A stretch of DNA of 64,000 nt from Phormidesmis sp. (GTDB taxonomy: Bacteria; Cyanobacteriota; Cyanobacteriia; Leptolyngbyales; Leptolyngbyaceae). Location: contig CBDFJR010000002.1 of the NCBI GenBank assembly GCA_965248535.1, forward strand, positions 1,408,001 to 1,472,000, in the 5' to 3' direction. The notes beneath the pieces are model-generated. The model made no database searches and had not been told where the DNA came from. It was given only the letters and a program-made list of their open reading frames with translations. Every line of letters starts with the position of its first letter. Position 1 is the first letter of the stretch. Below, piece after piece: positions 18,962 to 32,424 of the stretch. The position numbers were made by a program, and so were the translations under genes.

Positions 18962-19034
18962 GGCTCAGTAGCTCAGTGGTTAGAGCAGGGGACTCATAAG
19001 CCCAAGGTCGCAGGTTCAAATCCCGCTTGAGCCA
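18962..19034 (+). tRNA. tRNA with CAT anticodon, most likely elongator tRNA-Met; integration target
   Basis: GGCTCAG/TTGAGCC acceptor stem, AGCTCAGTGGTTAGAGC D arm, CTCATAA loop, GGTTCAAATCC T arm; G1-C72 paired so not initiator; Ile2 identity not excluded. Confidence 0.92.
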
Positions 19035-19041
19035 TTTTTTA
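18990..19041 (+). repeat. attL core (3' part of tRNA)
   Basis: ggactcataagcccaaggtcgcaggttcaaatcccgcttgagccatttttta identical to 32373-32424; imperfect similarity continues ~60 bp through the terminator hairpin. Confidence 0.95.
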
Positions 19042-19169
19042 GGATGGAATAAAATATCCCGTAGCCCCGTATTTCAAGGGGTTACGGGATTTTCGCGTTT
19101 GTGCAATACCCTCTAACACCCTTTAATACCCTCTAATACCTGCCTACTTTTTAGGCAAACTTTAGGCAC

Positions 19170-20300
19170 ATGATTGAAGGCAGACTTGCACAGGCTAACG
19201 GACGATTGAAAGCTTCTAACGTGGGTGTGAGCATCGAGATAAAGGGCAATCGCCTTTATTTACGATCGACGTTCCCCCCTAAACCCGGTTCAGATAGAGA
19301 AAAGCCCTCTCAGCAACGTTTGACGCTTGGCTACCATTCAAACCCGGCTGGTCTGAAACTGGCAGAACAAGAAGCGAGAAAAGTCGGCGCGCTGCTCGAT
19401 TGTCGTGAGTTTTCTTGGCAACCGTATTTAACGGCATCTATCATCAAACCCCTGACGATCGCTGATTGGGTGCAGAGATATGAGATTGATTATTTCAATC
19501 GTCGTGAGCAGACCCCTGAGAGTGTAACGACTTGGAAAGGTGACTATCTACAGGCTTTTTCGTGTCTGCCTCCAGATGAACCGATCACTCTGCAACTGCT
19601 AACAAGCGCTATCACTGCTACTAAACCAGATTCTAGGAATCGAAAGCGGTTTGTCGATGTGTTAGGACGGCTCGCAGTGTTTGCGGGGCTAGAAGCCAAT
19701 TTTAAGCCACTGAAGGGGAATTACTCACCGAGCAAGGTAACGCCGCGTGATTTACCTCCAGATAGCACGATCGCGGCATGGAGGGAGAAAATCCCTAACC
19801 CTAAATGGCAGTATGCCTATGGTCTGATTGCCACTTATGGAATTAGACCCCATGAGGTATTCCGGTGCAACCTGGATAAATTCCCGGTGCTGCAAATTGA
19901 GGAAACGACTAAAACAGGGCAGAGACGGGTTTATCCGTTCTACCCTGAGTGGCTTGAGCAGTGGAATTTAAGGGAGGGCACCTTGCCACGGGTCACGGGT
20001 CAGAATAACTCTGATTTGGGTAATCGGGTGAGTCACCAGTTTAGGCGCTATGAGGTGCCCTTTCCTCCCTACAATTTGCGGCACGCTTGGGCCGTGAGGT
20101 CGATGGAGTTTGGGCTAGACATTAGCCTAGCGGCGCAACAGATGGGGCATAGCGTCAGAGTCCACAGCGAGATCTATCACGCTTGGATTAGTGAGGAGGT
20201 GCATCAGAGAGCGTATGAGGCTCTCATGATGAGGAGCGATCGCCCGTTGCCTCCTATCTCATCTCTGGGGGAATCTCTAACGCCTCCTCACAGCGTTTGA
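19170..20300 (+). CDS. Tyrosine recombinase/integrase, cyanobacterial XisA/XisC-like
   Basis: N-terminal ANGRLK..RLYLRSTFPPKPG; catalytic YGIRPHE, KTG, LRHAWA, MGHS, terminal Y. Confidence 0.93.
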   Translation: MIEGRLAQANGRLKASNVGVSIEIKGNRLYLRSTFPPKPGSDREKPSQQRLTLGYHSNPAGLKLAEQEARKVGALLDCREFSWQPYLTASIIKPLTIADWVQRYEIDYFNRREQTPESVTTWKGDYLQAFSCLPPDEPITLQLLTSAITATKPDSRNRKRFVDVLGRLAVFAGLEANFKPLKGNYSPSKVTPRDLPPDSTIAAWREKIPNPKWQYAYGLIATYGIRPHEVFRCNLDKFPVLQIEETTKTGQRRVYPFYPEWLEQWNLREGTLPRVTGQNNSDLGNRVSHQFRRYEVPFPPYNLRHAWAVRSMEFGLDISLAAQQMGHSVRVHSEIYHAWISEEVHQRAYEALMMRSDRPLPPISSLGESLTPPHSV

Positions 20301-20466
20301 GGTGCCATCGGTAGGTCGGTCTAGCAGCTTGCGGGCTGGCAATATTTCGCCAATGGATTTTCTCTTTTAGGAGTCCTTCACGCCGAAGTTTCCAGAGATG
20401 CTCGTCAGTGAAACCCAATTCATTACAAACCGTGCCTGTAGGCACCCAATCAGAGGTTCTGCTCAT
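20254..20466 (-). CDS. Probable excisionase / small winged-helix DNA-binding protein
   Basis: 70 aa, convergent on the integrase; WV.T...LG....L.K.R..G.LK...HWR...RPTYRWH pattern. Confidence 0.7.
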   Translation of the reverse strand: MSRTSDWVPTGTVCNELGFTDEHLWKLRREGLLKEKIHWRNIASPQAARPTYRWHLKRCEEALEIPPEMR

Positions 20467-20728
20467 CACACCCCCCAAATAAACTGGGCTGCACGTATTT
20501 TTTAACGTACACCTGTCTCTCAAGTTGCTGACATCGCTGGTTTAGGGCAGTGGTCAGGATGTCAAATTCTCTCGATAGCAGAGAGTAGTGGGATTTTTTC
20601 CACTTCTTGTAGAGCGGCATATCTTGCCAGTCGCCCTCTGGCTCCCAATCTGTCAGCACCCCGATGGCGATTTTGAGCTTAGAAATCCGATCGCTGTGAT
20701 CGATGATGTCGTCAATGAAGTTGCTCAT
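20450..20728 (-). CDS. Hypothetical protein (element early operon)
   Basis: ORF tightly coupled between rep and xis. Confidence 0.6.
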   Translation of the reverse strand: MSNFIDDIIDHSDRISKLKIAIGVLTDWEPEGDWQDMPLYKKWKKSHYSLLSREFDILTTALNQRCQQLERQVYVKKYVQPSLFGGCDEQNL

Positions 20729-21666
20729 CTATCGTTCCTCCAAGATTTGGTTGCCGTCGATCAAGAAGCGCCACTGGTTATCGGTAATCAGATTCCTCAC
20801 TAAATCGGCCCAGCCGGCCGCGAGCAGCGCTTGCAGTCGCTCTAAAACAAAGGTGCGATCGCCGAACTCGATCGCTCTTTGGCAACTTTCGCGAATTTCA
20901 AATAAATCGGGTGCCGCCGCCGCCACCGGAACCTGACCCGTCTCAACCTGACGATTTTGGCTGATCAGAAAGTCTTGCTGATTGGCTTCTAACGGTGCCT
21001 GCTTTTTGACCCACTGCTCTAAGAAGGTGGGCCGGACTGGGAGCTGCTCAGATTTCCAGATCAACCAGTCTCGATAGGCGGGTTCGATCTCCTGTTTTGC
21101 GTCAGCATTTTTGTCTCTCTCTCGATCATCTCTGTAGAGAGAGAGAAAGATTGTAAAGACTGTAGAGATAGAGGCGATCCAGACCCGTTATGGGATGCGG
21201 GTTCTGGCGGTTTTTTGTCGCAAATTTGCGAATTTTTGTCGCATAAGTGCGAATCTGAGTCGCAAAACTGCGAATCTGAGTCGCAAATTTGCGAATTTTT
21301 GTCGCACTTATGCGAATCTGAGTCGCAAATTTGCGACAATTCCTCCAAAAAAACATATTCTGGAACTCCCTCTGAGTTTGACATAGGAACGTTTAGTTCC
21401 ATTTCGTCGGGGGCGCTAATTTCGAGGCGATGCTGCTCAGAAAGTTTTCCGATCGCTCGGTAATAACTGGCTTTGTTGATGCCCAGTTGATCGCAAACCC
21501 AACTGATGCTGAGGCGCACCACTTTGCCAAGTTTGCGGGCACTGGCTACCAGGTAGAAAATTGCGCCCCTGGTCGTGAGCAACCCGGCTTTATAGTCTCG
21601 AATGACATCTTTAACGGTCAGTCTATGGTGGGGTTGGGTTTTGGGTGTTTTTACGCTAGGATTCAT
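20729..21666 (-). CDS. Putative replication initiator (N-terminal HTH, internal iterons), split by a frameshift in the (AG)n tract near 21115-21124
   Basis: HTH-like VCDQLGINKASYYRAIGKL; removing one AG joins 21061..21666 to 20729..21064 via RDKNADAKQEIEPAYRDWLIWKSEQLP. Confidence 0.65.
21218..21336. repeat. Six palindromic TCGCA-N4-TGCGA boxes at exact 21-bp spacing (putative iteron origin)
   Basis: Boxes start at 21218, 21239, 21260, 21281, 21302, 21323. Confidence 0.85.
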
Positions 21667-21759
21667 GGGGATGTCAAGGTTTTATGGACAAGAGAAAGAA
21701 AAGGCAACCTTTAGCCTTAAAAAGGGGCAGTCCGTAACTAGCGGTCTGCCCTTTGGCTT

Positions 21760-21972
21760 TTAAATGTGATTGACGATCGTTCTAATCAGGGCTTTCTTTT
21801 GCTCAGGTGACATGGTTGCGATCTGAGGTTCTAGCGGCGCTGGCAGATGATCGACGTGAAAGCCCAGGGGCTTGTGGGCAGAGGGATAGCTGATCTGCTC
21901 AGTCAGGGCGTGAATGAGTTGGACTTTTTGGTCTGAGGTGAGCAGCAGAAGTTGCGCCGTGAGTTGGGTCAT
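21760..21972 (-). CDS. Hypothetical protein
   Basis: 70-aa ORF with internal repeat (LTSDQKVQLI / MSPEQKKALI). Confidence 0.6.
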   Translation of the reverse strand: MTQLTAQLLLLTSDQKVQLIHALTEQISYPSAHKPLGFHVDHLPAPLEPQIATMSPEQKKALIRTIVNHI

Positions 21973-22015
21973 GGGTTAACCTTTGCTTAGATGAATTTGA
22001 TCAATGAACAGGCGA

Positions 22016-22049
22016 TCGCACTCCCCAGACGGCAGCGCGATCGCTTTTT
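22016..22049. repeat. 34-bp direct repeat, left of TA cassette
   Basis: tcgcactccccagacggcagcgcgatcgcttttt identical at 22784-22817. Confidence 0.92.
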
Positions 22050-22084
22050 GTTGGGATAATGGATTGAGTAAAAGAGGTTGAGTG

Positions 22085-22249
22085 ATGTTCAACATTGAGC
22101 TTGAGCAGGAAGATGACCAACGGTGGATCGGTGAGGTTACAGACTTACCGGGTGTGCTGGCTTATGGGCAGACGAAGGAAGAGGCGATCGCCAATGCAAA
22201 AGCGTTAGCGCTGCGGGTGCTGGCTGACCGCATTGAGCATGGTGAGTGA
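22085..22249 (+). CDS. hicB: Short HicB-family antitoxin (54 aa, not in ORF track)
   Basis: Translated by hand: MFNIELEQEDDQRWIGEVTDLPGVLAYGQTKEEAIANAKALALRVLADRIEHGE. Confidence 0.8.
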   Translation: MFNIELEQEDDQRWIGEVTDLPGVLAYGQTKEEAIANAKALALRVLADRIEHGE

Positions 22250-22251
22250 CG

Positions 22252-22485
22252 ATGCCTAAGAAGGTTAGGGAGTTGAAAAAACTCGTGAAGAAAGCGGGGT
22301 ATGTCTACCAGCCGGATCGAGGGAAGGGTAGTCATAGTTTTTGGAAACATCCCCTGTTGCCGGGTGAGGCGTTGTGTATCCCTGGTAAGGATGGAGATGA
22401 CGCACCGAGATATCTTGAGAAAGAGGTTGATCGGGTGCTGATGAAGCTGAAGGAGTTAGAGAGCCAACAGGAGGATGAGGTATGA
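22252..22485 (+). CDS. hicA: HicA-family mRNA interferase toxin
   Basis: MPKKVRELK..AGY...RGKGSH..WKHP. Confidence 0.88.
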   Translation: MPKKVRELKKLVKKAGYVYQPDRGKGSHSFWKHPLLPGEALCIPGKDGDDAPRYLEKEVDRVLMKLKELESQQEDEV

Positions 22486-22712
22486 AATCGCGCTACAGCA
22501 TGGTCATCCAGTGGTCGGATGAGGATGATCTCTACCTGGTTCATTTGCCTGAGTTTCCGTGGCAGCAGTTTGTAACGCACGGTAAGACCTATGAAGAGGC
22601 GGCTAAAAACGGGCGTGAGGTGTTGGAAACGTTTATCGAGATGTTTCAGGAGGAAGGAAAGCCTCTGCCTGAGCCGATCGCTTACCCTGAAAAACCTCTG
22701 AAAGTTGCTTAG
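22482..22712 (+). CDS. hicB: HicB-family antitoxin
   Basis: YSMVIQWSDED..YLVHLPEF...THGKTYEEA; overlaps hicA stop (ATGA). Confidence 0.9.
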   Translation: MKSRYSMVIQWSDEDDLYLVHLPEFPWQQFVTHGKTYEEAAKNGREVLETFIEMFQEEGKPLPEPIAYPEKPLKVA

Positions 22713-22783
22713 TGGCATAGAAATCTCCGATCGGTAAAAAACAAAAGTCATTTCGGCGCACACGTCCCGTGCAGCGAGGCTGT

Positions 22784-22817
22784 TCGCACTCCCCAGACGG
22801 CAGCGCGATCGCTTTTT
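22784..22817. repeat. 34-bp direct repeat, right of TA cassette
   Basis: Identical to 22016-22049. Confidence 0.92.
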
Positions 22818-22821
22818 TGTG

Positions 22822-23007
22822 TCAGTAGGGCATTTGGTCTTCTTCTTCTGACTCTTCAACGCAGAGGTCAAAGATTTGCTGTAGCTCGTCTAGCAGGGCT
22901 TCTTGTCGATCGGGCGGGAGTTGCTCAAAGAGAGTGACGATTCTGTCTTTGAGTTCGTCGTGGTCTTGATGGTCTGCTTCTAAAACGGTCATTTCGTCTT
23001 GGGTCAT
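22822..23007 (-). CDS. Small acidic hypothetical protein
   Basis: 61-aa ORF with GGAGG upstream on the minus strand. Confidence 0.6.
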   Translation of the reverse strand: MTQDEMTVLEADHQDHDELKDRIVTLFEQLPPDRQEALLDELQQIFDLCVEESEEEDQMPY

Positions 23008-23151
23008 CGATAAGCCTCCGGGTGGGAGAGGGAATCACGGTAAGGGGTCTGAGGGGTTGGGTTCCTCAGATGGGTGATTCCGGTGGATCATTGGTTTTAG
23101 CCACACGGGGAGGACGGCAAATCTGCCCCGTGTGGATGTTCAGTACAGAAC

Positions 23152-23190
23152 AGGCGATTCATCTAGGTGAATCATCTAGACGAATCGCCT
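23152..23190. promoter_or_regulatory. Inverted-repeat operator candidate at the divergence point of the element
   Basis: aggcgattc...gaatcgcct arms with nested gattcatctaggtgaatc, 13 bp upstream of the XRE gene. Confidence 0.55.
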
Positions 23191-23203
23191 ATTTCAAGAT
23201 ACT

Positions 23204-23473
23204 ATGGATTCAGAAAAAAACAACCCGTGGGAGGAAGGCGTGTCCCCTTTAAAAACAATCCGCCAGTTGCTCAAACTGACTCAAAGGCAGTTTGCAGAAA
23301 GGATTGGCTCAGACCAAAACGTTGTGAGCCGATGGGAAAGGGGTGTCTATGAGGCGACTTTTACCATCGCGCAAGTCAAGGCTATGGATGAGTTGCTAAA
23401 AGAGGCATCCCTTACCTGGCAAGACATTCCTAACAGTCTTGCTCCCTACTCAAACGAAAGCGCTGAGGCGTGA
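23204..23473 (+). CDS. XRE/Cro-family HTH regulator
   Basis: LKTIRQLLKLTQRQFAERIGSDQNVVSRWERG. Confidence 0.9.
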   Translation: MDSEKNNPWEEGVSPLKTIRQLLKLTQRQFAERIGSDQNVVSRWERGVYEATFTIAQVKAMDELLKEASLTWQDIPNSLAPYSNESAEA

Positions 23474-23602
23474 CCACAATCACACTTCAGCGCTCACTTA
23501 AGAAAGGAGGTCATTAACCCCACACTATTTAGATCAAATTCTTAGCCGGGGCACAGCTTCCAACTTCACCCCGGCTCTACCCCAAACAGAGGCACTTACA
23601 TT

Positions 23603-24016
23603 ATGAATCTTTCATCACACAGACGATCGCTCGGTGCGATCGTCGCTGCAACGATCACGATTGCGGCACCCGCAGCGATCGCCATGACCTACGACGATTT
23701 CGGAGACCTTTTCAAGAATGCCGTCAACGGGTTAGCGGGCGATCGACCGCCTGAGACTCGGTACCCAGATGTCCCCAACAACGCTCCCCTGACTCACGGC
23801 GCTAAACCCTACAGCAGTTTTGGCTCACTCACCGCCGGGCAAGTCGATGCGCTGCATAACCTAGCCTGGCCACAATCCACTAAAGCGATGCGTTCCCGGT
23901 TCGGCGCTCCCTCCTATATCAGTGCCGACCTGGATTGGTTTGAGCAACCCGACGGGGAGTTTATCGCTGTCCGTTACCAGGGTGCTCAAGCTGTCGGTGT
24001 GGAGGCGGGAAAGTAG
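23603..24016 (+). CDS. Hypothetical secreted protein
   Basis: Signal-peptide-like N-terminus RRSLGAIVAATITIAAPAAIA. Confidence 0.65.
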   Translation: MNLSSHRRSLGAIVAATITIAAPAAIAMTYDDFGDLFKNAVNGLAGDRPPETRYPDVPNNAPLTHGAKPYSSFGSLTAGQVDALHNLAWPQSTKAMRSRFGAPSYISADLDWFEQPDGEFIAVRYQGAQAVGVEAGK

Positions 24017-24018
24017 TC

Positions 24019-24276
24019 ATGCCTAGAGAAACATGGATTATGGAATCTGATGACAAAGACGGAGACTTTAGCGACACTGCATCTCACCACACTTACCAGG
24101 TGGGCAACATCACAGATGCGGTTGAAGCTGAATCACGGGCGCTTGAAACAGGTGGTGATCCGGTTTGGATGGATGCCAAGATCGATGGCTCTGAGTATGA
24201 AATCGAGCAGAATCAGAAATTCACGATCGCTGAGTTTGAGCTTGATTCTCAAGGTGTTCAGTATCAACAGAAGTGA
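24019..24276 (+). CDS. Acidic hypothetical protein
   Basis: Starts 2 bp after previous stop. Confidence 0.6.
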   Translation: MPRETWIMESDDKDGDFSDTASHHTYQVGNITDAVEAESRALETGGDPVWMDAKIDGSEYEIEQNQKFTIAEFELDSQGVQYQQK

Positions 24277-24285
24277 GGTTAAACA

Positions 24286-24588
24286 ATGCCAGGTTTTTTT
24301 GAGCGAGTATTTTTTGGCAATCAAGCCGATGATGATGAAAGCTTTACTGACACCAATTCAGGGATTCAGTACACGAATCACAGCAAGCAGGAAACGCTTG
24401 ATCATGCGGCGCGATTTGATGAGTACGAGGCCGGCTCTGATGTCCGGTCTAACGATGGAAGGCAGGCTTCAGAGGTGCGTGATTCGACAAGGTTTAACAC
24501 TGCTATCTTTGAAGTGGATGACCAGAAGTTTTACTTCCCAACTGAACTCGATCCAGGCAACCCTAGAAATCCAGCAAACAAGCCATGA
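24286..24588 (+). CDS. Acidic hypothetical protein
   Basis: GAGG RBS; tight operon spacing. Confidence 0.6.
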   Translation: MPGFFERVFFGNQADDDESFTDTNSGIQYTNHSKQETLDHAARFDEYEAGSDVRSNDGRQASEVRDSTRFNTAIFEVDDQKFYFPTELDPGNPRNPANKP

Positions 24589-24737: not shown

Positions 24738-24742
24738 ACAGC

Positions 24743-24809
24743 GATTGTCCTTTTCTCACAACTTGGGAACGCACAAAAAGCCCCTCTTAGACCGATCTGA
24801 GAGGGGCTT
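24743..24809. repeat. Hairpin-containing intergenic repeat, copy 1 of 3
   Basis: gattgtccttttctcacaacttgggaac...aagcccctcttag-accgat-ctgagaggggctt. Confidence 0.85.
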
Positions 24810-24841
24810 ATGATTAAAAATATCGCTGTTTCTAGACCATT

Positions 24842-25697: not shown

Positions 25698-25994
25698 ATG
25701 TCAGCTTTACCCACTAGACCCAGCGCGATCGCCACCACCGAACAGGAAATCATGCGCCTGATGATGTATTACCGCGATGTCAACCCGCGCACGACTTGGC
25801 TAGAAGAATCTAACTTCACCATGCCCGTGGCCTCATGGGATTGGAAACCCAACCCAGAAGGACGGATTCTCTTTGTGGCCCGCGCCATTATCGAAGTCGA
25901 TTCAGCCCTTCTCAGCAGTGGGGTCAAACCGTGGATGAGTGCTAAAGAGGTTCCCGGCTCCGCTACGTTGACGGGCAACGCCTACACCACCTGA
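25698..25994 (+). CDS. Hypothetical protein, first gene of putative structural module
   Basis: 98-aa ORF, 4 bp from the next gene. Confidence 0.65.
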   Translation: MSALPTRPSAIATTEQEIMRLMMYYRDVNPRTTWLEESNFTMPVASWDWKPNPEGRILFVARAIIEVDSALLSSGVKPWMSAKEVPGSATLTGNAYTT

Positions 25995-25998
25995 TGCA

Positions 25999-26697
25999 AT
26001 GAACTGGACACAGTTAGGCAAAAGCATCACGATCGCCTCACAGCGCAAGTGGACTGATACGACGGCTAAGACTTGGTTTAAGTTTGATTTCAACCCGGCA
26101 ACCGAGGGATTTTTAGAAGTCACTCAAGGGGATGGAAATCTGACGATCGGGGAACCGATCAACATTTCAACGGATAGAAGCCCGGTGATTTTATCCCTAC
26201 CAGTGCCGCTATTAGTCAGTCCACAAAGCAGAAAACTCGCGCTTAAATCGCTCCAAAAACTCAAGATTAGCATCTCTACTTTAGATGTTGAACCTATCAC
26301 AATCAACCCAGATTTAAGCGCAGTTGTTCAGGCAATTCAAACTCAACAATCGCAGATCGACCTCATCTCAAACCAACTCACAACCTTACTCACCATGCCA
26401 TTATTTCAATCCAATCCCACCGTTCAGCCGCCCAAGAATTCCGTCTCTGCAACGATCGCTAGCTCAACCACAAGCGTATCGCTGTTAGCAGCAAACGATA
26501 ATCGCAAAGGTGCCACTATCTATAATCGCAGCACTGCCACACTGTTTATCGACTTTGACAGCGCTGCAACAATTCTAGATTGTGCTGTGGCTATTCCTCC
26601 AATGGGTTACTACGAAGTGCCGTTTGGAATGCTCACCGCAATCTCAGGTATCTGGGATGCAGTCAACGGTAGCGCATATGTTAGAGAGCTAACCTAA
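25999..26697 (+). CDS. Putative virion protein with C-terminal beta domain (paralogue of 31025..31705)
   Basis: STTSVSLLAANDNRKGATIYNRS...ISGIWD C-terminal domain; TAATG overlap with next gene. Confidence 0.6.
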   Translation: MNWTQLGKSITIASQRKWTDTTAKTWFKFDFNPATEGFLEVTQGDGNLTIGEPINISTDRSPVILSLPVPLLVSPQSRKLALKSLQKLKISISTLDVEPITINPDLSAVVQAIQTQQSQIDLISNQLTTLLTMPLFQSNPTVQPPKNSVSATIASSTTSVSLLAANDNRKGATIYNRSTATLFIDFDSAATILDCAVAIPPMGYYEVPFGMLTAISGIWDAVNGSAYVRELT

Positions 26698-27308
26698 TGC
26701 CGTTGTATGCCTACGATAAACATGACACTTACACTCAGGCTATCAACTGGGAGACACCCGGTGAGATAGGAAAAACAACACCTAACACGGGAAAGTTTAC
26801 ACGGGTTAGTGTTGCCAATACTAACAATGAGATTAGTAGATTTAGTTCGTCTGCTCAATACTATGCACGGCTAGCAGTTGAACACTCTGGGAGTCCGGGT
26901 ATAGCGCTCTATCATGATTCAACTTGGGCATGGTCTATCTTCTCAGATAGCGTCCTATTGAGCAATGGACAGACTAATGGATATAGCTACGCCATTGTTA
27001 ACGAGCGAACCTCTAAAATGGTGTTTGCTATTGATGGCAATGTGCAAAAGGTCAATGTGTTTGGAGGGCTGAGAGTTAGCAAGGAAACACCTAACCTCAC
27101 CTTCACTTCACCCCCCTCACCCGGCGAAGGCAACCTAGCCGTCGAGGGGTTTGTTCAGTTGGGCAGGTTCACCCTCTCTACTCTGCCTAATCCCGCTAGC
27201 TGTGAGGGTGCGATCGTCTATCTCTCTAACGAGTCTGGAGGCAAGACGATCGCCTTCTCTGATGGTGCGAACTGGAGACGAGTTAGAGACAACGTTGTTG
27301 TTACTTAA
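26697..27308 (+). CDS. Putative fibre/spike-like protein
   Basis: PGEIGKTTPNTGKFT and C-terminal LP......GAIVYLSNESGG...AFSDGANWRR motifs like those of phage fibre proteins. Confidence 0.6.
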   Translation: MPLYAYDKHDTYTQAINWETPGEIGKTTPNTGKFTRVSVANTNNEISRFSSSAQYYARLAVEHSGSPGIALYHDSTWAWSIFSDSVLLSNGQTNGYSYAIVNERTSKMVFAIDGNVQKVNVFGGLRVSKETPNLTFTSPPSPGEGNLAVEGFVQLGRFTLSTLPNPASCEGAIVYLSNESGGKTIAFSDGANWRRVRDNVVVT

Positions 27309-27329
27309 ACGATAAGGGAATCGCTACAG

Positions 27330-29825
27330 ATGGCTAATTATCGCTTTGGTGACGGATTTCATTACGAAAAACCCGCCTACGAACCTACACCCTCGCAAAT
27401 TAATGCAGCACAGGAAAGTGCTAGACGAAGCGCTGAAGCAAGAGCACGAGTTCAAGCAGCACAAGAACAGACTGCACGAGCAAGAGCGAAAGCTCTATCA
27501 GATCAAATAGAAGCCGAGCGACCGCAGAGAGAAGCACAGCAGAGACGGAATGCTGAACTTCGGCAACAAGCACAACAACGGTCTGATGAGTATCGAGCGG
27601 GATTAGAAAGTATCAAACAACGGCATAGAGAACAAGATGCTAAGTCAAAAGAAGTTTATGATGCCCTGAGAAAATACCAACGAGAAGAGTACGTTAATCG
27701 AACCGCTCCTAAACTCGATATTGCCCCTGGTAGACCACCCGGCGAAAATGATTTTGATAGCTCCGCAAAATTAAGAAATAGTACGCTACCAGCGCCCGCA
27801 CCACTTCCCATCAATCCCACAAAAAATGGGGAAATGGTACACGTTCCTAACGCTTCAAAATCACCATTAGCAAGAACTCAAGGCCCGATCGGGCCTCAAC
27901 TCCCAAAAGCATCATTACCCAGCGCAACTAAAAGCGGATTTAAATTTAGCGGTGTTGGCATGAGCGGCGGCGGCTTAGGTTTTGATATATCGGAAGCAGC
28001 GGCAACGTCCATCGCCCTCGATTTTCTGAATTCAAACGGTAGACCTAACTTTCCTGGTTACAATCCAGGCAATTCTGACATTGAAAGGTTAGGCAGAGGT
28101 ATCAGTGACGCTCTGAGGAATTTAGGCAACTCTCTAAGTCACCCTAGCGATAGATTATCTGACCTTCTAAACTTATTCCCCAACCCCTATAGAAAGCACC
28201 CTAGAACCGACCCCCAAAATGAGGACGGTAGACCTAAACCTGTTCGCTATGTCTCTGAGTGGAGAGGGTTAAAGTTCTACTCACCCAACAACAAGCGAGT
28301 AGTGCAGATCGCCGCACCCCACGGCGAATATTCGCTAGGGGAGATCAAGCAAGATAACCCCGGCGGGAACTACGTTTTCTCCAGTCCTGAAAAAAACACC
28401 TATGCCATCATCTACTGGGATAACCTGCAAGGGAATAACACCGATGGTTATCAGGTCATCAGGGGTAGCAGCACTTGCGAGCCTGACACCATCCAACGCG
28501 ATCCGACATATTCTCCTCCCTCCTACGACTTGCCCGCGCTGCTACCACCCGGCACCACCCCTGACCCCGGCTACCCTCCCATCTTCACAGACGAAGACTT
28601 CAAGCCCCAACGGGATTTGAATAACGATCGGGCCCGGCAAGACGAGCAAGACAGACAAGACGCACCCGATCCAGAACAAGAGCGGCAAGACGCACGCAGC
28701 CCACAGCCCGCCCCCGACCCGTGGGAAAATCCATTTCCAGCCCCAGACGGAACGCCGCAGCCACAGCCTTACCCCTTCCCGCTCGATCCACCCTCCCCAG
28801 ACCCCACTAACCCGACCGACCCCTACCCCGACACAACCCTAGGCGATCGCCTGAGAGAGAAAGTAGATCGCATCAAAGAAAAGCTCAACGAGAGATTCCC
28901 GGCTCCGACCGATGGGCCGCAGGTCACAATCAACGGTGATCCGGTGCCCAGTCCCACTTCTCCCGCTCCGCTACCAGACACCTCACTGTCTCCGTTGCCA
29001 GACACCCGCACTAAATCGCCTCCATCGCCTACAACGACCAAACCGCCCACAGAGACTCGGCTAGACACAGAGACCGGGCTGACTCCCACAAAAGACCCTG
29101 ACCCAAAACCCGACACCCCGACACCCGAAAAGTGTAAAGACCCCTGTATGCAAGGCTTGCACGATAAAACGGATGCTAACTCTAAGCAGACTGAAATTAA
29201 GGTCAAGGTGTTTAAATCGTGCTCTAAAGCGGGTGCTGACGGCACGACAAAAAATGAGATTGACTTTGAAGAGAAGCTGGTGAAGGTGCTAGCGAGTGAA
29301 GCGGATGCCTATAGGTTGCTCTACAGTCGGATTTTTGCCCTAGAGTCTGAGCAGTGTGGCGATGTGAAAGCGATCGCCTCCGTCCCTGAGTGGTGGCAAG
29401 CTCGGCGCGGGGCAGACATCCCTCAGCTTGTGATTATTTTTGCCGAGCAGTTTTCATCAGGCAAGCTAGGCGGCTCGCGATGGAATCTATCCATCCCTCA
29501 TTACAACAAGGGCAAGGGGTCTAGACCCGCGATTCCCTCTTATAACAAGGGCAACTGGTTCGGCACCCTACGGCTAACGGATGGGTCAAAGCTTGGGGTC
29601 AATGCCGCCACATCAACCGAATGTAAACGCATCTTAAATCGGTTGAAAATTCACATTCCGGTCGAGTTCCGCACCAAAAAAGGCAAGGCGATTAAACCGC
29701 GCATTGTGGAAGACCCCACGGCTGATCTCAAAGAATGCAAAGTGACACCCGTTAGAGCCGATTACTACTCTAAGGGTCAAGCCAACATGAGGCCTGACTG
29801 GTCAATTAATCTCCGCAGCAAATAG
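27330..29825 (+). CDS. Large 831-aa protein: N-terminal coiled coil, Pro-rich linker, basic C-terminal domain
   Basis: Long ORF with clear compositional domains; function unknown. Confidence 0.75.
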   Translation: MANYRFGDGFHYEKPAYEPTPSQINAAQESARRSAEARARVQAAQEQTARARAKALSDQIEAERPQREAQQRRNAELRQQAQQRSDEYRAGLESIKQRHREQDAKSKEVYDALRKYQREEYVNRTAPKLDIAPGRPPGENDFDSSAKLRNSTLPAPAPLPINPTKNGEMVHVPNASKSPLARTQGPIGPQLPKASLPSATKSGFKFSGVGMSGGGLGFDISEAAATSIALDFLNSNGRPNFPGYNPGNSDIERLGRGISDALRNLGNSLSHPSDRLSDLLNLFPNPYRKHPRTDPQNEDGRPKPVRYVSEWRGLKFYSPNNKRVVQIAAPHGEYSLGEIKQDNPGGNYVFSSPEKNTYAIIYWDNLQGNNTDGYQVIRGSSTCEPDTIQRDPTYSPPSYDLPALLPPGTTPDPGYPPIFTDEDFKPQRDLNNDRARQDEQDRQDAPDPEQERQDARSPQPAPDPWENPFPAPDGTPQPQPYPFPLDPPSPDPTNPTDPYPDTTLGDRLREKVDRIKEKLNERFPAPTDGPQVTINGDPVPSPTSPAPLPDTSLSPLPDTRTKSPPSPTTTKPPTETRLDTETGLTPTKDPDPKPDTPTPEKCKDPCMQGLHDKTDANSKQTEIKVKVFKSCSKAGADGTTKNEIDFEEKLVKVLASEADAYRLLYSRIFALESEQCGDVKAIASVPEWWQARRGADIPQLVIIFAEQFSSGKLGGSRWNLSIPHYNKGKGSRPAIPSYNKGNWFGTLRLTDGSKLGVNAATSTECKRILNRLKIHIPVEFRTKKGKAIKPRIVEDPTADLKECKVTPVRADYYSKGQANMRPDWSINLRSK

Positions 29826-29998
29826 TCAGTAATTTTAATGAAGCCCACGATCGGATCAATTTGCCTCAGCAACACAGGAAACCTCCGTAATTATGTCTTC
29901 GCTCTTAGAGCGAAGAAAATAAACCGGGGTTACCCTTGGCACTTCTGAGTATCGGTTGCGTAGGGTTGTGAGTAGCAAAAACTACCTCTCATTCACCT

Positions 29999-30503
29999 AT
30001 GTCTGCAATCAGCGTCACTGGCTCTAGCCTCAAATCAACCACCCTCCCAGGTGCCCTTCTCGAAGCCTGCTCTATTTCTCGATTCTGCTGAGAAAGCTCG
30101 GAACGGCGCAAACCCCGGAATCACTCCTAAAAACAACGTCAGCATCACATTTTCGAGTGACGACGGCACCGCTAACATCGCGGCTACCTTACCCGTTGAT
30201 GTTTCACAGCTATCTGATGGTGGCGTGAAATATCTGCCTAAAGACTATCTGGGTGGCACCTATGCGGCCTTTACTGCTGGTGGCGATGTCACGGCTACTT
30301 CTCGCATGGCGGCGGTTGCTCAAATTGCTCAGATTTTGAGTGCGGCTGAGAAAGCGATTCAACCCTTAGAAGATCAGCCTAATTTCATCCAGGTTGAATC
30401 CTCTAGCGAAAATGGCACCATCACCGTGACGGCTGCTCTTCCGATCGTGCAAACCATCAGTTCTAGCGGACTGGTGACGATCGCCGCGCTCGACTACCTC
30501 TAA
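29999..30503 (+). CDS. ~167-aa protein made of two ~80-aa tandem repeats; candidate major virion protein; frameshift near 30068
   Basis: ATG 29999 gives MSAISVTGSSLKSTTLPGALLEA, and a one-base shift joins it to ALFLDSAEKA...; both repeats end in DYL. Confidence 0.65.
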
Positions 30504-30534
30504 ATCAGGAAGAAACCTATAGGAGGTATAAATC

Positions 30535-30999
30535 ATGGCTGAAACAGCAGCAGCAAAGAAGCATAGAGCTAGAGGTCCGAGACAGCTTTTTGGATGGGGA
30601 ACGATCACGGTGACTCGTGAGAAGAAGAAGGTTAAGCACAACCCCTTTTCAACGATTCCTAAAAGCACGATGGATGCCTGCGGCTTGAAGATTGCCAAAG
30701 CCCCTGCGAGTGCAGGAGTGAAAACCAAGAAAGACAAAAAGGGGCGCTTGAGACTGGTTAACAGCCAAAATCTGACCAACGTCTCCTCTCGCTACATCAT
30801 GGTTTATGCAGGTGAAACCGACAACAAACAAGGGGAAGTCTGGCATCGGATCACCCTACCAACCGGGATTTCACTCGCTAGAGGAGCGTCTATTCTCACG
30901 GGTGGAGGCTCTAAAATCCAAAAGGTGAAATTCCCGAACGGTAAAGCCGTCCAGATTGGCAAGAAAATCACCCCGAAAGCGGCTCCTAAGAAGAAGTAA
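30535..30999 (+). CDS. Highly basic protein, candidate nucleic-acid-binding core protein
   Basis: AGGAGG RBS; K/R-rich throughout, ends PKAAPKKK. Confidence 0.75.
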   Translation: MAETAAAKKHRARGPRQLFGWGTITVTREKKKVKHNPFSTIPKSTMDACGLKIAKAPASAGVKTKKDKKGRLRLVNSQNLTNVSSRYIMVYAGETDNKQGEVWHRITLPTGISLARGASILTGGGSKIQKVKFPNGKAVQIGKKITPKAAPKKK

Positions 31000-31024
31000 C
31001 GATCATCGCTGAGTAGCCCAATCA

Positions 31025-31705
31025 ATGCTTGACCCAACTGAATGGCGGCTACGCGGCACCCGGCTCTATGGGATTAGGGGCGATCGGTCTCCCCTAATCC
31101 TCTGCCGTGACCTCACTTCTCAACTCGTGCGGGTTGATGTAGTTTTCAAAAATCTCAAATCGACTTGGTATAAGGCGGGAACGATTCAGCAGGTGTCGGA
31201 TGGGATTAGAGCGGCTGAGAAGACCGTGCCGTTTGAGTCTCGCTACTATTTGTTTCCAACGGATTTAGCACCCACCTATTCGCTTTATTGGCAGCCCGTG
31301 CCATGGCTACCAGTGGGGCGCTTACAGGTGTGGGAGTATATCGGATTGATTCCTGATGCACTCCTTCATCAACTCGCTAACTTCTCTGGAGAGTCTCAAA
31401 TGCCTGTCATTACAAATCCCGTCGCTCGTGCAGCCACGTCACGAGACACTGACAAAGGGGTCAGCACTACGTCTGTTGTGTTGATGCCTGCTGAGTTACG
31501 CCGCGTGGGGGGCACGATCATCAATCGATCTACCATTGCCTCGCTGTCGATCAATTTCGGTGAAACAGCAACGTCTGCTGACTATCACCGCCTCACCCCT
31601 GGCGGCTCGATCGATATTCCTATCTCTTGGGTGGGAGCGATCGCCGGAATCTGGGATAAAGCAGATCCCCTCGGTAAAGCCGTCATGACCGAGCTACTGG
31701 GCTGA
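31025..31705 (+). CDS. Putative virion protein with C-terminal beta domain (paralogue of 25999..26697)
   Basis: STTSVVLMPAELRRVGGTIINRS...IAGIWD. Confidence 0.6.
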   Translation: MLDPTEWRLRGTRLYGIRGDRSPLILCRDLTSQLVRVDVVFKNLKSTWYKAGTIQQVSDGIRAAEKTVPFESRYYLFPTDLAPTYSLYWQPVPWLPVGRLQVWEYIGLIPDALLHQLANFSGESQMPVITNPVARAATSRDTDKGVSTTSVVLMPAELRRVGGTIINRSTIASLSINFGETATSADYHRLTPGGSIDIPISWVGAIAGIWDKADPLGKAVMTELLG

Positions 31706-31742
31706 AAGCCCTTGAGTTAAATCAGTTCTCCTGAAGCACCAG

Positions 31743-31768
31743 GCGCGGGGTCAGTCCCGCGCTTTTTT
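31743..31768 (+). terminator. Intrinsic terminator closing the structural module
   Basis: gcgcggg-gtcagt-cccgcgc followed by T6. Confidence 0.8.
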
Positions 31769-31786
31769 GAATCATCTAAGGTCACC

Positions 31787-32083
31787 GTGAATAAAAATGA
31801 GTCGATTCTGTTTACGATCACCGTGCTCTCTTTTGGGGCTGGTCTGTTGCATCGTGTCTGGCTGATGTCCATGGCGGTTTCAGGAATGCGCCATAATCTG
31901 GAAAAACAAGACATCCGGTTGGAAAATCTCAACGATCTACATGAGGCCGGGTTTAATGGGTTTAAAGAAAGGATCGAACACTTCACTAACCGGACTCGCG
32001 GCGAGATTGGGGAGTTGAACAAACGGCTAGAGGATGTCGAGTCCTATCTGACAAAATCAACCGAGTTTATAAGACGACGATGA
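31787..32083 (+). CDS. Small membrane protein with coiled coil (holin-like position)
   Basis: N-terminal hydrophobic ILFTITVLSFGAGLL, charged C-terminus. Confidence 0.55.
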   Translation: MNKNESILFTITVLSFGAGLLHRVWLMSMAVSGMRHNLEKQDIRLENLNDLHEAGFNGFKERIEHFTNRTRGEIGELNKRLEDVESYLTKSTEFIRRR

Positions 32084-32229
32084 CGAGCAACCTGAATTTA
32101 TCGCTAGTTCAAACCACTAAGGAATTTTTGCGGCTCGTGCTGGCACAGCTACAAATGGATAAATTAGAGACAGCCGTAGCCCTAGAAGAAACGGCGGCAG
32201 AAATTCGAGCCAAAAAAGCGGCAGAGTAG
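32080..32229 (+). CDS. Small helical protein (49 aa, not in ORF track)
   Basis: ATGA overlap; MTSNLNLSLVQTTKEFLRLVLAQLQMDKLETAVALEETAAEIRAKKAAE. Confidence 0.5.
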   Translation: MTSNLNLSLVQTTKEFLRLVLAQLQMDKLETAVALEETAAEIRAKKAAE

Positions 32230-32372
32230 GTCAGTGCTAACGAGCATTAGACTAGTTTTATCTCTGTTCAGATAAATAGAATGAAGTGCTTAAATTAGTC
32301 ACACTTTAGTCAAGTTTTATAACTCAATTACTGAAAGCCAAACGCATCAAAGCTTTCAGCAGTCAGGTTTAT

Positions 32373-32424
32373 GGACTCATAAGCCCAAGGTCGCAGGTTC
32401 AAATCCCGCTTGAGCCATTTTTTA
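32373..32424 (+). repeat. attR core (duplicated tRNA 3' part)
   Basis: Identical to 18990-19041. Confidence 0.95.

Follow-up and report, generated by a model that had tools for sequence, protein, structure and literature searches.

The described systems closest to the element studied here are the Corticoviridae, the Tectiviridae, the Finnlakeviridae-like phages, several kinds of phage satellite and the XepA/YomS proteins of Bacillus. The element lies at a tRNA-Met gene of Phormidesmis sp., in a window (the whole stretch of DNA analysed) of 64,000 nucleotides. Corticoviridae (PM2 and PM2-like proviruses) have, like the element, small (~10 kb) temperate or integrated genomes in aquatic bacteria. 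P1 of PM2 is a single vertex protein, with a jelly-roll base and a distal jelly-roll receptor-binding domain, and is the best match of the 232-aa protein of the element. To our knowledge PM2 has no endolysin of its own, and none was found in the element by Pfam or PHROGs. In contrast with PM2, no double-jelly-roll MCP or P9-type packaging ATPase was detected in the element, the set of small membrane proteins is lacking (at most one or two ORFs are hydrophobic), and there is no sequence similarity.

The pentons of the tectiviruses PRD1 and PR772 are composed of P31 and P5 (PMC6750898), paralogues with a penton-type N-domain which is bare in P31 and followed by a linker and a distal head in P5. 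Likewise, the element family has the N-domain either fused to a beta-domain, in the 232- and 226-aa proteins, or free, as a 156-aa protein of a sibling element. However, Pfam PF08948 does not match the 232-aa protein, no P3-like MCP, P9 ATPase or protein-primed polymerase is present, and the element is circular and integrative whereas the tectiviral genome is linear. Finnlakeviridae-like ssDNA phages (FLiP, PhiCjT23) are small, temperate and tailless, with a double-jelly-roll MCP and a lipid membrane, and such phages use rolling-circle replication. Neither such an MCP nor an HUH Rep was found in the element, and its replication looks iteron- or theta-type. In temperate phage PhiCjT23 one protein makes up the penton base, a flexible linker and the external spike, and the main text of the paper describing it uses the word "ATPase" 0 times and mentions no packaging ATPase (PMC9719478).

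Satellites (P4-like, PICI/cf-PICI and PLE) have the same size, a tyrosine integrase at a tRNA site and a repressor switch, and share helicase or D5 primase-helicase replication modules with relatives of the element. But the element has no match to known hijacking functions, no helper was identified in the host genome, and we know of no counterpart in these satellites to a conserved multi-protein structural-type module that takes 6-7 kb, half of the genome. XepA and YomS (Bacillus PBSX, SPbeta) consist, like the 232-aa protein, of two beta-sandwich domains and a linker; they are encoded at the end of the late operon, just ahead of small membrane/lysis proteins (PMC6834076), and a likeness of XepA pentamers to fivefold capsomers has been stated (PMC8812541). 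They differ in belonging to large tailed or tail-like prophages, in having no established function and in showing no sequence similarity to the element protein.

Boundaries and gene content

The 52-bp exact repeat formed by the 3' end of tRNA-Met encloses 13.4 kb (Table 1), as the earlier note had reported. Imperfect homology past the attL core extends to 19101, and repeat search gave 18990-19101 and 32373-32484 as a direct repeat with 90% identity over 112 nt. The element is bounded and site-specifically inserted; a tyrosine recombinase placed it in the tRNA 3' end, and the 52-bp core restores the tRNA. Presence or absence at tRNA-Met was compared in seven same-genus genomes over ~1.4 kb past the tRNA. 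In five of them homology ended 4 to 59 bp past the tRNA and the element genes were absent from this ~1.4 kb, a sister species (G402) carried a decayed relative that had lost most of int and kept a xis-like ORF, and the remaining genome (G407) was unclear.

The earlier note had assigned an integrase with a convergent xis, a leftward replication operon and an XRE switch to the left part. Integrase and XRE regulator were confirmed by family matches; the integrase is also 42% identical over 268 aa to that of sibling element E2, which passes Pfam, while its own Pfam Phage_integrase score (14.7 bits) was under the cut-off. The convergent ORF is retained in the G402 relic, and it has no family match in Pfam, PHROGs or NCBIfam and is a putative excisionase by its position. 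The replication operon gained no support from families, its ORFs being without match (the 201-aa ORF against Pfam, PHROGs and NCBIfam); what stands is the iteron array inside the 201-aa ORF, as the ori of lambda lies inside gene O.

A HicA/HicB pair, absent from the earlier note, has a perfect 34-nt direct repeat (D11) on both sides (22016-22049 and 22784-22817). The 61-aa ORF looks by eye like a 67-aa ORF of the sibling, and BLAST gave no confirmation. The five small rightward ORFs have no match in Pfam, PHROGs or NCBIfam; the N-terminus of the 137-aa one is signal-peptide-like, and a G+C-rich hairpin occurs in three copies between the small rightward ORFs (24776-24812, 25294-25330, 25579-25615; D3, D4).

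The late-type operon encodes two jelly-roll proteins with N-domain and beta-domain, together with one fibre-like, one large Pro-rich, one acidic repeat and one very basic protein, and its ORFs of 98, 232, 203, 831, 150, 154 and 226 aa cover 25698-31705. This is the extent given by the earlier note, though the tight coupling it described is not uniform because of a 225-bp gap at 29826-30050. Its other descriptions agreed with our analysis: the two beta-domain proteins are paralogous (C-terminal ~100 aa, E 1.1e-8, 38% identity), the 150-aa protein has a ~60-aa unit duplicated internally, the 154-aa protein is very basic, the 831-aa protein has 51 prolines within residues 401-600, and a terminator precedes a small TM gene. 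None of the seven proteins matches Pfam, PHROGs or NCBIfam at E<=1e-3. Residues 1-100 of the 831-aa protein are charged and Ala-rich, and it is 50% identical over 228 aa to a homologue in G294. The "s101" family is found upstream of the large protein in sibling-type elements, a PF10983 match on P0005 belongs to the evidence on the fibre-like protein, and no relatives of the basic protein were detected in local searches. Among terminator-like sites in the region the hairpin ranks first. After it come a 98-aa ORF (31787-32083) with a hydrophobic stretch at the N-terminus and a 49-aa ORF (32080-32229) which is 55% identical to a sibling ORF, and together they may be an exit or lysis pair.

Table 1. 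Coordinates of features of the tRNA-Met element in the window.
Feature	Coordinates	Strand	Basis
tRNA-Met (CAT), integration target	18961..19035	+	ARAGORN
attL, 52-bp exact core (tRNA 3' part + 6 nt)	18990..19041	.	repeat search, letters
Tyrosine integrase, 376 aa	19170..20300	+	phrog_1, E 1.3e-10
89-aa ORF convergent with int, putative excisionase	20254..20523	-	position; 78% aa identity in G402 relic
Two ORFs, 92 and 111 aa, no assigned role	20450..21064	-	ORF list
201-aa initiator-like ORF with iteron array inside	21061..21666	-	repeats, ORF list
Six 21-nt iterons, candidate origin	21196..21357	.	repeat family D1
70-aa ORF kept in sibling element	21760..21972	-	40% identity, E 1.3e-11
HicA toxin and HicB antitoxin	22246..22712	+	PF07927 E 2.1e-10, PF15919 E 7.2e-6, phrog_497
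61-aa acidic ORF divergent from XRE	22822..23007	-	ORF list
XRE-type HTH regulator	23204..23473	+	HTH_3, E 7e-11
Five small ORFs, 137, 85, 100, 139 and 111 aa	23603..25562	+	ORF list, no family match
98-aa protein, family "s101"	25698..25994	+	local HMM, E<0.01, small database
232-aa two-jelly-roll protein, candidate vertex/spike	25999..26697	+	AF2 model, fold matches
203-aa fibre-like protein	26697..27308	+	C-terminal ~50 aa common to long fibre-like proteins on viral contigs
831-aa large protein	27330..29825	+	charged N-terminus, Pro-rich middle, conserved C-terminal ~230 aa
150-aa acidic protein, family X150, internal duplication	30051..30503	+	sequence analysis
154-aa very basic protein	30535..30999	+	pI 10.9, 34 K+R
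226-aa protein, "Ndom" family N-domain fused to beta-domain	31025..31705	+	sequence comparison
Intrinsic-terminator-like hairpin at operon end	31741..31764	+	10 pairs, 7 G-C
98-aa coiled-coil-like protein and 49-aa ORF, candidate exit/lysis pair	31787..32229	+	ORF list
attR, 52-bp exact core	32373..32424	.	repeat search, letters

Distribution of related elements

The tRNA-Met element is one of a family of cyanobacterial elements of 10-21 kb, not described before and mostly from filamentous Nostocales. Sibling E2 is located at tRNA-Glu of the same genome (~14.1 kb, 81-bp att repeat). Among 40 loci of other species-representative genomes (38 cyanobacterial), 25 had all four core families and 9 had two or three; the resulting 34 core-module loci are nearly all from Nostocales. 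The beta-domain profile was found in 14 of 401 cyanobacterial genomes. One Nostoc genome has three copies with 98% identity, two of them in tandem, which points to recent activity. Relatives exist as free circles: module genes are present on two circular replicons ("plasmids") of 15,633 and 20,757 bp, with the full module on the larger.

The core module is constant, while integrase and replication genes are exchanged between relatives, with iterons in the tRNA-Met element and an AAA_25/DnaB-like helicase or a D5-type primase-helicase in relatives. In the 34 loci, sibling E2 and the two circular replicons the module is never beside terminase, portal or capsid genes. So the compact gene set, which recurs at other sites and replicons, is not the deletion remnant of a larger prophage that the earlier note had considered. 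IMG/VR and GenBank phages contained no module proteins apart from two shuffled domains.

Hallmark genes and folds of core proteins

The Walker A motif [GA]xxxxGK[ST] had two matches in the six frames of 18901-32600, both in open frames of 23 and 15 codons, so no real ORF encodes a Walker-A ATPase. No hallmark was matched in the element by Pfam, PHROG or NCBIfam, and in six related loci all 97 ORFs were without a match to Pfam families for terminase, portal, capsid or tail tube. PHROG matches of two Nostoc elements were limited to helicase, integrase and tail-fibre; the same search on a tailed prophage detected TerL, portal, head, adaptor and head-closure. Tail tube, sheath and baseplate families (Pfam, PHROGs) matched neither the element nor the tested relatives, and relaxase and type IV secretion families (Pfam) had no match in the element and the six related loci. 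In agreement with the earlier note, the element has no Walker-A ATPase and none of the sequence-detectable hallmarks of tailed phages, inoviruses or microviruses. TerL_ATPase, Terminase_6N and Phage_capsid matched nothing in the host genome, which is 99.76% complete, therefore no recognisable helper is resident.

Two core proteins were folded, the 232-aa protein and X269. The AF2 model of the former (pLDDT 81.4) shows two jelly rolls, an N-domain (1-92) and the C-terminal beta-domain (148-232), joined by a flexible linker. Against best Z scores of 7-8, typical even for unmatched models, it gave Z 10.3 with the receptor-binding domain of PM2 P1 (rmsd 2.8, 85 aligned), Z 9.7 with whole P1, yet with rmsd 11.1 over 164 aligned, and, for the N-domain, Z 8.3 with a PR772 chain of 124 residues (6q5u_O; rmsd 2.7, 86 aligned). 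The N-terminal domain of P5 was modelled as residues 1-124 (PMC6750898), and on the model comparison we read this match as the P5 penton domain. The jelly-roll matches are just 1-2 Z units over generic cupins, Ena pili and carbohydrate-binding modules, and Ena pilus subunits are similar to the beta-domain as well (Z 8.7 and 7.7). Foldseek against PDB gave XepA as the top match (E 2.6e-4; YomS, Z 7.6). Independently, the language-model Atlas pointed to a cluster with PRD1_P5_spike_N in 32% of its members, with a score of 0.88, below 0.9 and so taken as a lead. From these models the 232-aa protein is a candidate vertex or spike protein.

X269, a core protein of the sibling type found in seven of the first nine loci and absent from the tRNA-Met element, matched no known fold, neither double-jelly-roll nor HK97: its best Z was 5.8, on the helical N-terminus, and the C-domain reached 4.5-5.0, with 2H-phosphoesterase-like folds as the closest natural ones (Z 4.5-4.8). 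No capsid shell protein was identified by family search or by folding of these two proteins.

Two tailed phages carry the beta-domain within their structural or fibre region, and the C-terminus of the 203-aa protein is the end of long fibre-like proteins on nine viral contigs. Relatives contain PTR, collagen and Laminin_G_3 domains and a tail-fibre PHROG match (phrog_24210, E 4.8e-13). Both externally shared domains come from tailed-phage fibre-region proteins, and an adsorption apparatus fits as well as a capsid. The "virion-like" reading of the earlier note is strengthened by the domains common to tailed-phage fibre-region proteins and by the vertex-spike-like jelly roll.

Possible nature of the element

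Our tentative reading, with a probability of about 0.4, is that 18990-32424 is the integrated copy of a small temperate tailless virus-like element. After derepression it would excise and replicate as a circle. The module proteins have no signal-peptide- or membrane-like stretch except the last small one (N-termini inspected, hydropathy), so they should assemble in the cytoplasm, where the operon would produce a tailless particle. The 232- and 226-aa proteins may form penton-plus-spike units at the vertices, as compared with PM2 P1, PhiCjT23 P13 and PRD1 P5/P31, the 203-aa and large proteins may be host-recognition fibres, and the 154-aa protein may condense DNA. The particle would be filled without a P-loop motor or by a motor of host or helper, and the small membrane protein would serve for exit. 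The interpretation of the earlier note is thus supported in part: the element is bounded, lacks hallmarks and is no remnant, and the two options of that note, a motor-less virus and a satellite with particle proteins of its own, still lead, the present evidence fitting both.

The main rival, somewhat less likely, is a phage satellite that integrates, replicates and is regulated like the P4, PICI or PLE type; having no shell, it would be packaged into helper capsids when a tailed cyanophage infects, and its operon would supply the fibre or spike proteins that retarget the particles. Its 10-15 kb, the integrase, the XRE switch and the helicase or D5-type modules of relatives agree with this, as do the absence of capsid, portal, terminase and ATPase, the place of both shared domains in tailed-phage fibre or structural regions, and the phrog_24210 match, PTR and collagen repeats of relatives. 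However, PHROGs revealed no small terminase, capsid-size redirector or helper-interference gene, the host lacks a recognisable helper prophage, and the N-domain resembles penton bases, a feature of shells rather than tails. Among the papers listed in a literature search, none was on a satellite that has a fibre module of its own.

In mycelial actinomycetes, small integrative conjugative elements transfer double-stranded DNA by means of a single FtsK-like protein. That the element is a non-viral integrative plasmid, whose module would build a fibre or adhesin on the cell or, as in those elements, a structure for contact-dependent transfer, seems improbable, even with circular "plasmid" relatives (one with ParAB), mostly filamentous hosts and the beta-domain likeness to Ena pili. 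Two relatives, L048 and the 20.8-kb circle, encode a P-loop protein of ~400 aa in which an N-terminal stretch looks hydrophobic by eye, with sub-threshold matches to FtsK_SpoIIIE and HerA (E 2e-4 and 4e-4) in the P-loop region only; but it is absent from the tRNA-Met element, sibling E2 and the Nostoc type, and its PDB sequence search returned generic P-loop matches only. The lack of export stretches in the module proteins and of relaxase or type IV secretion families also argues against a plasmid.

A decayed tailed prophage or domesticated tail-like bacteriocin cluster with fibre/baseplate genes left is very improbable: fibre-type domains occur without head genes, and relative L042 has no replication gene, a frameshifted X269 and an adjoining amidase/glucosaminidase, but exact att repeats enclose only 13.4 kb, the compact content recurs in different sites, genera and circles, each time with an integrase and in most cases with replication genes, near-identical copies share one genome, and no tail tube, sheath or baseplate family matched.

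As a member of a family with particle-surface-type genes and without recognisable capsid or packaging genes, the element could represent a novel sort of small virus or a parasite of viruses, with the tailless virus-like reading preferred.

Insertion at tRNA-Met and gene layout of the element

The element at tRNA-Met is bounded, mobile and self-replicating, and it belongs to a recurrent family. The 52-bp exact att core that the earlier note had claimed agrees letter for letter between its two copies (see the table of features), and the repeat finder extended it to an imperfect 112-nt repeat. This extension was also considered as a tandem second element, which we rejected, because relatives without the element have the same trailer of ~60 nt after the tRNA. 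Since the trailer is present there, the imperfect part is best read as an attP copy that mimics the host trailer.

Features of the element and its borders (window positions)
Feature	Position	Direction	Evidence or remark
Element	18990-32424		
tRNA-Met	18961-19035		single tRNA in the window (ARAGORN)
att core, 52 bp	18990-19041 and 32373-32424		exact
Direct repeat, 112 nt	18990-19101 and 32373-32484		90%
Tyrosine integrase	19170-20300		phrog_1, E 1.3e-10; Pfam below cut-off
Six 21-nt iterons	21196-21357		inside a 201-aa leftward ORF
Direct repeat, 34 nt	22016-22049 and 22784-22817		perfect
HicA + HicB	22246-22712		Pfam
XRE regulator	23204-23473		HTH_3, E 7e-11
G+C-rich hairpins	24776-24812, 25294-25330 and 25579-25615		three copies
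Late operon	25698-31705	rightward	98, 232, 203, 831, 150, 154 and 226 aa
Beta-domain copies	26380-26694 and 31382-31702		
Gap in late operon	29826-30050		225 bp
Terminator-like hairpin	31741-31764		strongest of the region, after the operon
hicB-like piece	32485-32532		48 nt, just right of attR

Insertion was checked with the left flank and tRNA as query against seven same-genus genomes. In five of them homology ended 4 to 59 bp past the tRNA end, and no element genes were found in the ~1.4 kb after tRNA-Met; of the other two, G402 has a decayed relative (below) and G407 gave an ambiguous picture. The right flank of the window is homologous to the relatives from ~32670, where it lies on contigs other than that of tRNA-Met, so the empty attB was judged from the left side only.

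A sister species (G402, locus L106, G402:C52) carries a decayed relative downstream of the same tRNA-Met, with most of int deleted (~47 integrase residues left) and an 89-aa xis-like ORF kept at 78% identity. The hicB-like piece beside attR matches the beginning of the element's own hicB gene (22482-22529) at 85% identity, and it may be the relic of an earlier related element at this tRNA. Among public reads, the stretch was present only in the Logan contigs of three runs, which belong to two studies, with no RNA runs among the listed holders; none of the Logan contigs joined the att sites or crossed a circle junction, and these contigs were short and uninformative either way. Metagenome contigs (runs X1 and X2, two studies) contained several variants of the left arm (20300-23500), 90-99% identical with block replacements, which indicates that elements of this type form a diverse population in nature.

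The phrog_1 and HTH_3 matches agree with the integrase and the XRE switch described in the earlier note. Four leftward ORFs after the integrase gave no family match. Iterons inside an initiator-like gene are the arrangement of lambda O and its origin. The labels "xis" and "replication" stand by position and iterons, and no family match lies behind either of them. Overlapping by 4 nt, two adjacent genes that the earlier note did not mention matched HicA (PF07927 at 41 bits, cut-off 27) and HicB (PF15919 at 26.6 bits, just under the cut-off of 27), with phrog_497 at E 1.6e-10, and make up a HicAB toxin-antitoxin pair. They are bracketed by the 34-nt repeat, as if the cassette had been inserted as a unit.

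Five small rightward ORFs precede the late operon, spaced by the three hairpin copies (AAAAGCCCC...GGGGCTT), the last of them ~80 bp ahead of the first late gene. These hairpins may act as terminators in series, or entry into the operon may be controlled there by antitermination. The late operon had been called tightly coupled; its gene set was confirmed, but it is interrupted by the 225-bp gap. Other properties claimed for its products were recovered: the 232- and 226-aa proteins have paralogous C-termini (the beta-domain, ~100 aa), the middle of the 831-aa protein is Pro-rich, the 150-aa protein has an internal duplication and the 154-aa protein is very basic (pI 10.9). The closing terminator and the small membrane gene were also found, the latter as a 98-aa ORF with a hydrophobic N-terminus, followed by a 49-aa ORF. 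None of the seven operon proteins matched Pfam, PHROGs or NCBIfam at E<=1e-3.

A recurrent family in cyanobacteria

The same genome has a sibling element, E2, of ~14.1 kb (G000:C2:1014240-1028386, from L018 14240 to L019 8386). An 81-bp repeat with 96% identity marks its borders and overlaps with one end of tRNA-Glu. The two elements have in common the integrase (42% identity), the 203-aa protein (59%), the last small ORF (55%), a 70-aa ORF, the beta-domain proteins and the large protein (27% over 334 aa). The replication gene of E2 encodes a 421-aa AAA_25 protein, and E2 has no iterons. E2 also splits the 226-aa protein into a 156-aa N-domain gene followed by 107- and 132-aa beta-domain proteins, which begin at the junction motif MPLF.

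Among 401 cyanobacterial genomes sampled, the 203-aa protein was found in two (this genome included) and the beta-domain profile in 14; the 203-aa alignment had no match in first scans of genome-contig and metagenome-contig collections. Seven loci from five of those genomes carry more of the module, giving nine first loci together with the element and E2. All nine have the beta-domain and a large Pro-rich or collagen-like protein. The X269 family is present in seven and is absent from the element and its closest relative (in genome G294). The loci also have N-domain families, ~200-aa basic proteins, a terminal small membrane-type protein and, ahead of the large protein, a ~100-aa protein that corresponds to the element's 98-aa ORF. 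Profile-profile comparison did not relate basicA, basicB and the 154-aa protein to one another. Between family n131 and the N-domain of the 232-aa protein it gave a probability of 55% (E 1e-4), which is suggestive of a relationship. A fusion of X269 into the 831-aa protein was not borne out, as its profile reached the 831-aa C-terminus only at E 0.012 and a probability of 3.5%.

A wider scan of the beta-domain alignment against one genome per species gave 40 loci, of which 38 come from cyanobacteria (Nostoc, Tolypothrix, Calothrix, Oscillatoriales, Thermoleptolyngbya and Waterburya). All four core families occurred in 25 loci, two or three in nine, and at most one in six, these last being short contigs or the two non-cyanobacterial loci. 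The search for the gene set that the earlier note had proposed returned at least two core families in 34 of 40 loci. The conserved core of the family is a 6-7-kb operon of proteins that, by inspection, have no signal-peptide-like N-termini.

In the Nostoc type (~10-11.5 kb) a DnaB/AAA_25-like helicase comes first, followed on the opposite strand by a small tyrosine recombinase (~195 aa) and then by the module. In Nostoc linckia NIES-25 (AP018222.1; L077/L078/L079) a ~10.2-kb relative occurs three times, the copies being 98% identical; two of them form a tandem array that repeats every 15,895 bp, and in this variant three ~120-aa paralogues stand in place of the basic protein. Module genes were also found on two complete circular "plasmids". 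The 15,633-bp circle (L090, CP019638.1) carries X269 and the large protein together with ParAB and an integrase; it also encodes a 1,690-aa protein (L090 9827-14899) with a MACPF/perforin domain match (E 2.2e-6) and, separately, a PIN-domain pair. On the 20,757-bp circle of Tolypothrix sp. PCC 7601 (L091, NZ_CP064893.1) the module is complete, and genes for an HTH regulator, a small integrase and a ~400-aa P-loop protein accompany it.

The 51 homologues of X269 and the 69 of the N-domain family were all unnamed "hypothetical proteins", from filamentous cyanobacteria in every case among the organism names listed. IMG/VR contained no relatives of the 232-aa protein, the 831-aa protein or protein P0022, and GenBank phages none of X269 or the 831- and 226-aa proteins.

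Beta-domain and predicted folds of the core proteins

The only relatives of the core proteins outside the family are surface or fibre modules of phage particles. Searched with a four-sequence profile of the beta-domain, 1.84 billion proteins yielded 8,883 cluster representatives at E<=1e-3, of which 5,006 remained at E<=1e-10. In nearly all of the 150 representatives listed (101 to 1,155 aa) the best-scoring copy is at or near the C-terminus, and a few carry two or three copies. The 18 representatives scanned had no Pfam model in the domain and no PHROG match at E<=1e-4, with one weak match (phrog_30212, E 2e-4); the profile had no match at E<=10 in PDB sequences. In the two tailed phages viewed, the domain is in the structural region: after the capsid and tail genes in a podovirus, and between a head-tail adaptor and a tail-fibre-assembly-like gene in a prophage. 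The beta-domain appears to be a large family of virion-surface modules, C-terminal in position and so far unannotated. Long fibre-like proteins from nine viral contigs, among them an 840-aa repeat protein, terminate in a segment related to the last ~50 residues of the 203-aa protein, and one 203-aa homologue carries PF10983.

The AlphaFold2 model of the 232-aa protein (42-sequence alignment, pLDDT 81.4) consists of a beta-sandwich at the N-terminus (1-92) and a jelly roll at the C-terminus (148-232, pLDDT ~97), joined by a linker of low confidence. The best structural match was the receptor-binding domain of the PM2 spike P1 (Z 10.3, rmsd 2.8, 85 aligned), and whole P1 in the virion followed (Z 9.7, rmsd 11.1, 164 aligned). 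The N-domain matched a PR772 virion chain of 124 residues (Z 8.3, rmsd 2.7, 86 aligned) and several picorna-like and norovirus capsid jelly rolls (Z 6.9-7.8). In the PR772 study, the N-terminal penton domain of P5 is modelled as residues 1-124, and P5 and P31 form a heteropentameric penton (PMC6750898). Close behind for the 232-aa model were generic cupins (Z 7-9.3), Ena pilus subunits (8.7) and carbohydrate-binding modules (8.2), and, by the search tool's own guidance, models that lack a true match commonly reach a best Z of 7-8.

Foldseek against the PDB placed XepA (E 2.6e-4) and PM2 P1 (3.1e-4) at the top, and against a viral library it returned many uncharacterised phage proteins of ~90-100 aa at TM 0.7-0.87 (normalised by target length). 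XepA pentamers resemble fivefold capsomers, and searches with single-jelly-roll capsid proteins bring up XepA and cupins at Z ~7, according to PMC8812541; this puts the 232-aa protein in the same structural neighbourhood. A language-model atlas put the protein near a viral cluster with PRD1_P5_spike_N on 32% of its members (score 0.88), which we take as a lead only; Pfam PF08948 did not match it.

X269 was folded from a 46-sequence alignment (pLDDT 85.2) as a three-helix N-terminus and an alpha/beta domain. The best fold match had Z 5.8, on the helices, in a search that barely tested parts of the model. The C-terminal domain reached only Z 4.5-5.0, with 2H-phosphoesterase-like proteins as the closest natural folds (4.5-4.8), and the Protein Atlas returned nothing usable. 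As no match was convincing, X269 is, as modelled, probably neither a double jelly roll nor an HK97 fold.

Tailless virus, satellite or plasmid

We give a probability of about 40% to the reading that the element is an autonomous tailless virus. Its genome layout is complete. The likeness to a penton with a spike comes from two independent kinds of evidence, and the N-domains occur both fused and free, as with P5 and P31. No helper prophage was recognisable in the host genome. There is also a precedent in small temperate tailless phages where one protein is penton, linker and spike (PMC9719478); the main text of this paper, on one such phage, does not mention an ATPase.

The element was compared with known groups of viruses. 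For the tailless phages of Bamfordvirae (Corticoviridae, Tectiviridae, Autolykiviridae, Finnlakeviridae), profiles of a major capsid gave no match, and X269 (269 aa, alpha/beta, of the sibling type) had no double-jelly-roll match. The element has no Walker A and so no FtsK/HerA-type packaging ATPase; a P-loop protein with sub-threshold matches to FtsK and HerA was seen in just two distant relatives. For Helvetiavirae, which have two paralogous vertical single-jelly-roll capsid proteins beside a packaging ATPase, the element offers two paralogous jelly-roll proteins whose common part is the distal domain, and no ATPase; capsid chains of P23-77, SH1 and SPV1 were not among the best 50 structural matches of each list. 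For Inoviridae (Zot/pI-type ATPase, small hydrophobic coat proteins), no Walker A and no PHROG match was found, and the late region has only one clearly hydrophobic small ORF. For Microviridae (F-type capsid, HUH Rep, 4-7 kb), the element is 13.4 kb and had no PHROG or Pfam match. A more specific proposal is possible and is offered tentatively: the elements would be proviruses and episomes of small tailless viruses that form a new lineage and infect mainly filamentous cyanobacteria, with penton-plus-spike jelly-roll vertices like those of PM2, PRD1 and PhiCjT23, a shell of unrecognised type and, in this element, no virus-encoded P-loop motor.

That the element is instead a satellite with its own adsorption apparatus seems to us somewhat unlikely. 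No shell fold was found in the two proteins folded, the 232-aa protein and X269, and there is no ATPase, both of which speak for a satellite and against a tailless virus. On the latter point we agree with the earlier note: a six-frame search for the Walker-A pattern gave two matches, in open frames of 15 and 23 codons. The replication modules are satellite-like. Like P4, PICI, cf-PICI and PLE satellites, the element has an integrase, a replication system of its own (iterons with an initiator-like ORF) and an XRE switch, and its relatives have a helicase or primase-helicase. All domains with known relatives are of fibre type. Helper-hijacking families of satellites had no PHROG match in the element and two Nostoc elements.

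A contact-dependent integrative plasmid is improbable. The plasmid forms and the filamentous hosts are in its favour, and so is the ~400-aa P-loop protein of two B-type relatives (L091 13323-14513 and L048 2550-3761), which has a hydrophobic N-terminal stretch by eye and sub-threshold matches to FtsK_SpoIIIE and HerA. It could be a packaging or transfer ATPase; the L048 protein had only generic P-loop matches among PDB sequences. However, it lies outside the family core, and the FtsK-like translocase TraB of small actinomycete-type integrative conjugative elements was not found in the element, the likeness in the two relatives being weak and limited to the P-loop.

The element is not a remnant of a larger prophage, an origin considered in the earlier note, and a decayed prophage or tail-like bacteriocin cluster is very improbable. 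Of the Caudoviricetes hallmarks, no terminase large subunit was matched by Pfam or PHROGs among 24 ORFs of the element region, and no portal or HK97-fold capsid by either library, the 232-aa and X269 models not being HK97-like. In six related loci, none of 97 ORFs matched Pfam families of terminase, portal, capsid or tail tube; those matched were integrases, AAA_25, a D5-type primase-helicase (DUF3854/D5_N/DUF5906), PTR "phage tail repeat", Laminin_G_3, collagen, one amidase/glucosaminidase and a transposase. Two Nostoc elements matched only helicase/primase, integrase, tail-fibre phrog_24210 (E 4.8e-13) and collagen-type tail-fibre PHROGs. The same scan of a control tailed prophage from a Pseudomonadota genome recovered terminase, portal, major head, adaptor and head-closure proteins, and therefore it detects hallmarks when they are present. 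TerL_ATPase, Terminase_6N and Phage_capsid had no match in the host genome (99.76% complete).

No account of such elements in cyanobacteria came up in the literature listings and abstract openings searched. We rated the element as a temperate virus-like or satellite-like integrative element and gave a categorically new virus lineage one chance in three.

Temperate viruses and satellites of filamentous cyanobacteria such as Nostoc, Tolypothrix and Calothrix, which are nitrogen fixers, lichen and plant symbionts and bloom formers, are poorly known. Detection pipelines rely on hallmark genes, and this family has none. The viral collections searched did not contain it, although it recurs across genomes, reaches several copies in some of them and also exists as free circles. 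Under either reading, virus or satellite, the beta-domain defines a large family (the 5,006 representatives at E<=1e-10), and if the new tailless lineage is true it would be a common viral surface module missed by current family libraries. A satellite with its own adsorption apparatus would represent a new satellite strategy. If particles are made, the family would be a virus or satellite type invisible to current tools, and a tractable small model in culture-collection strains.
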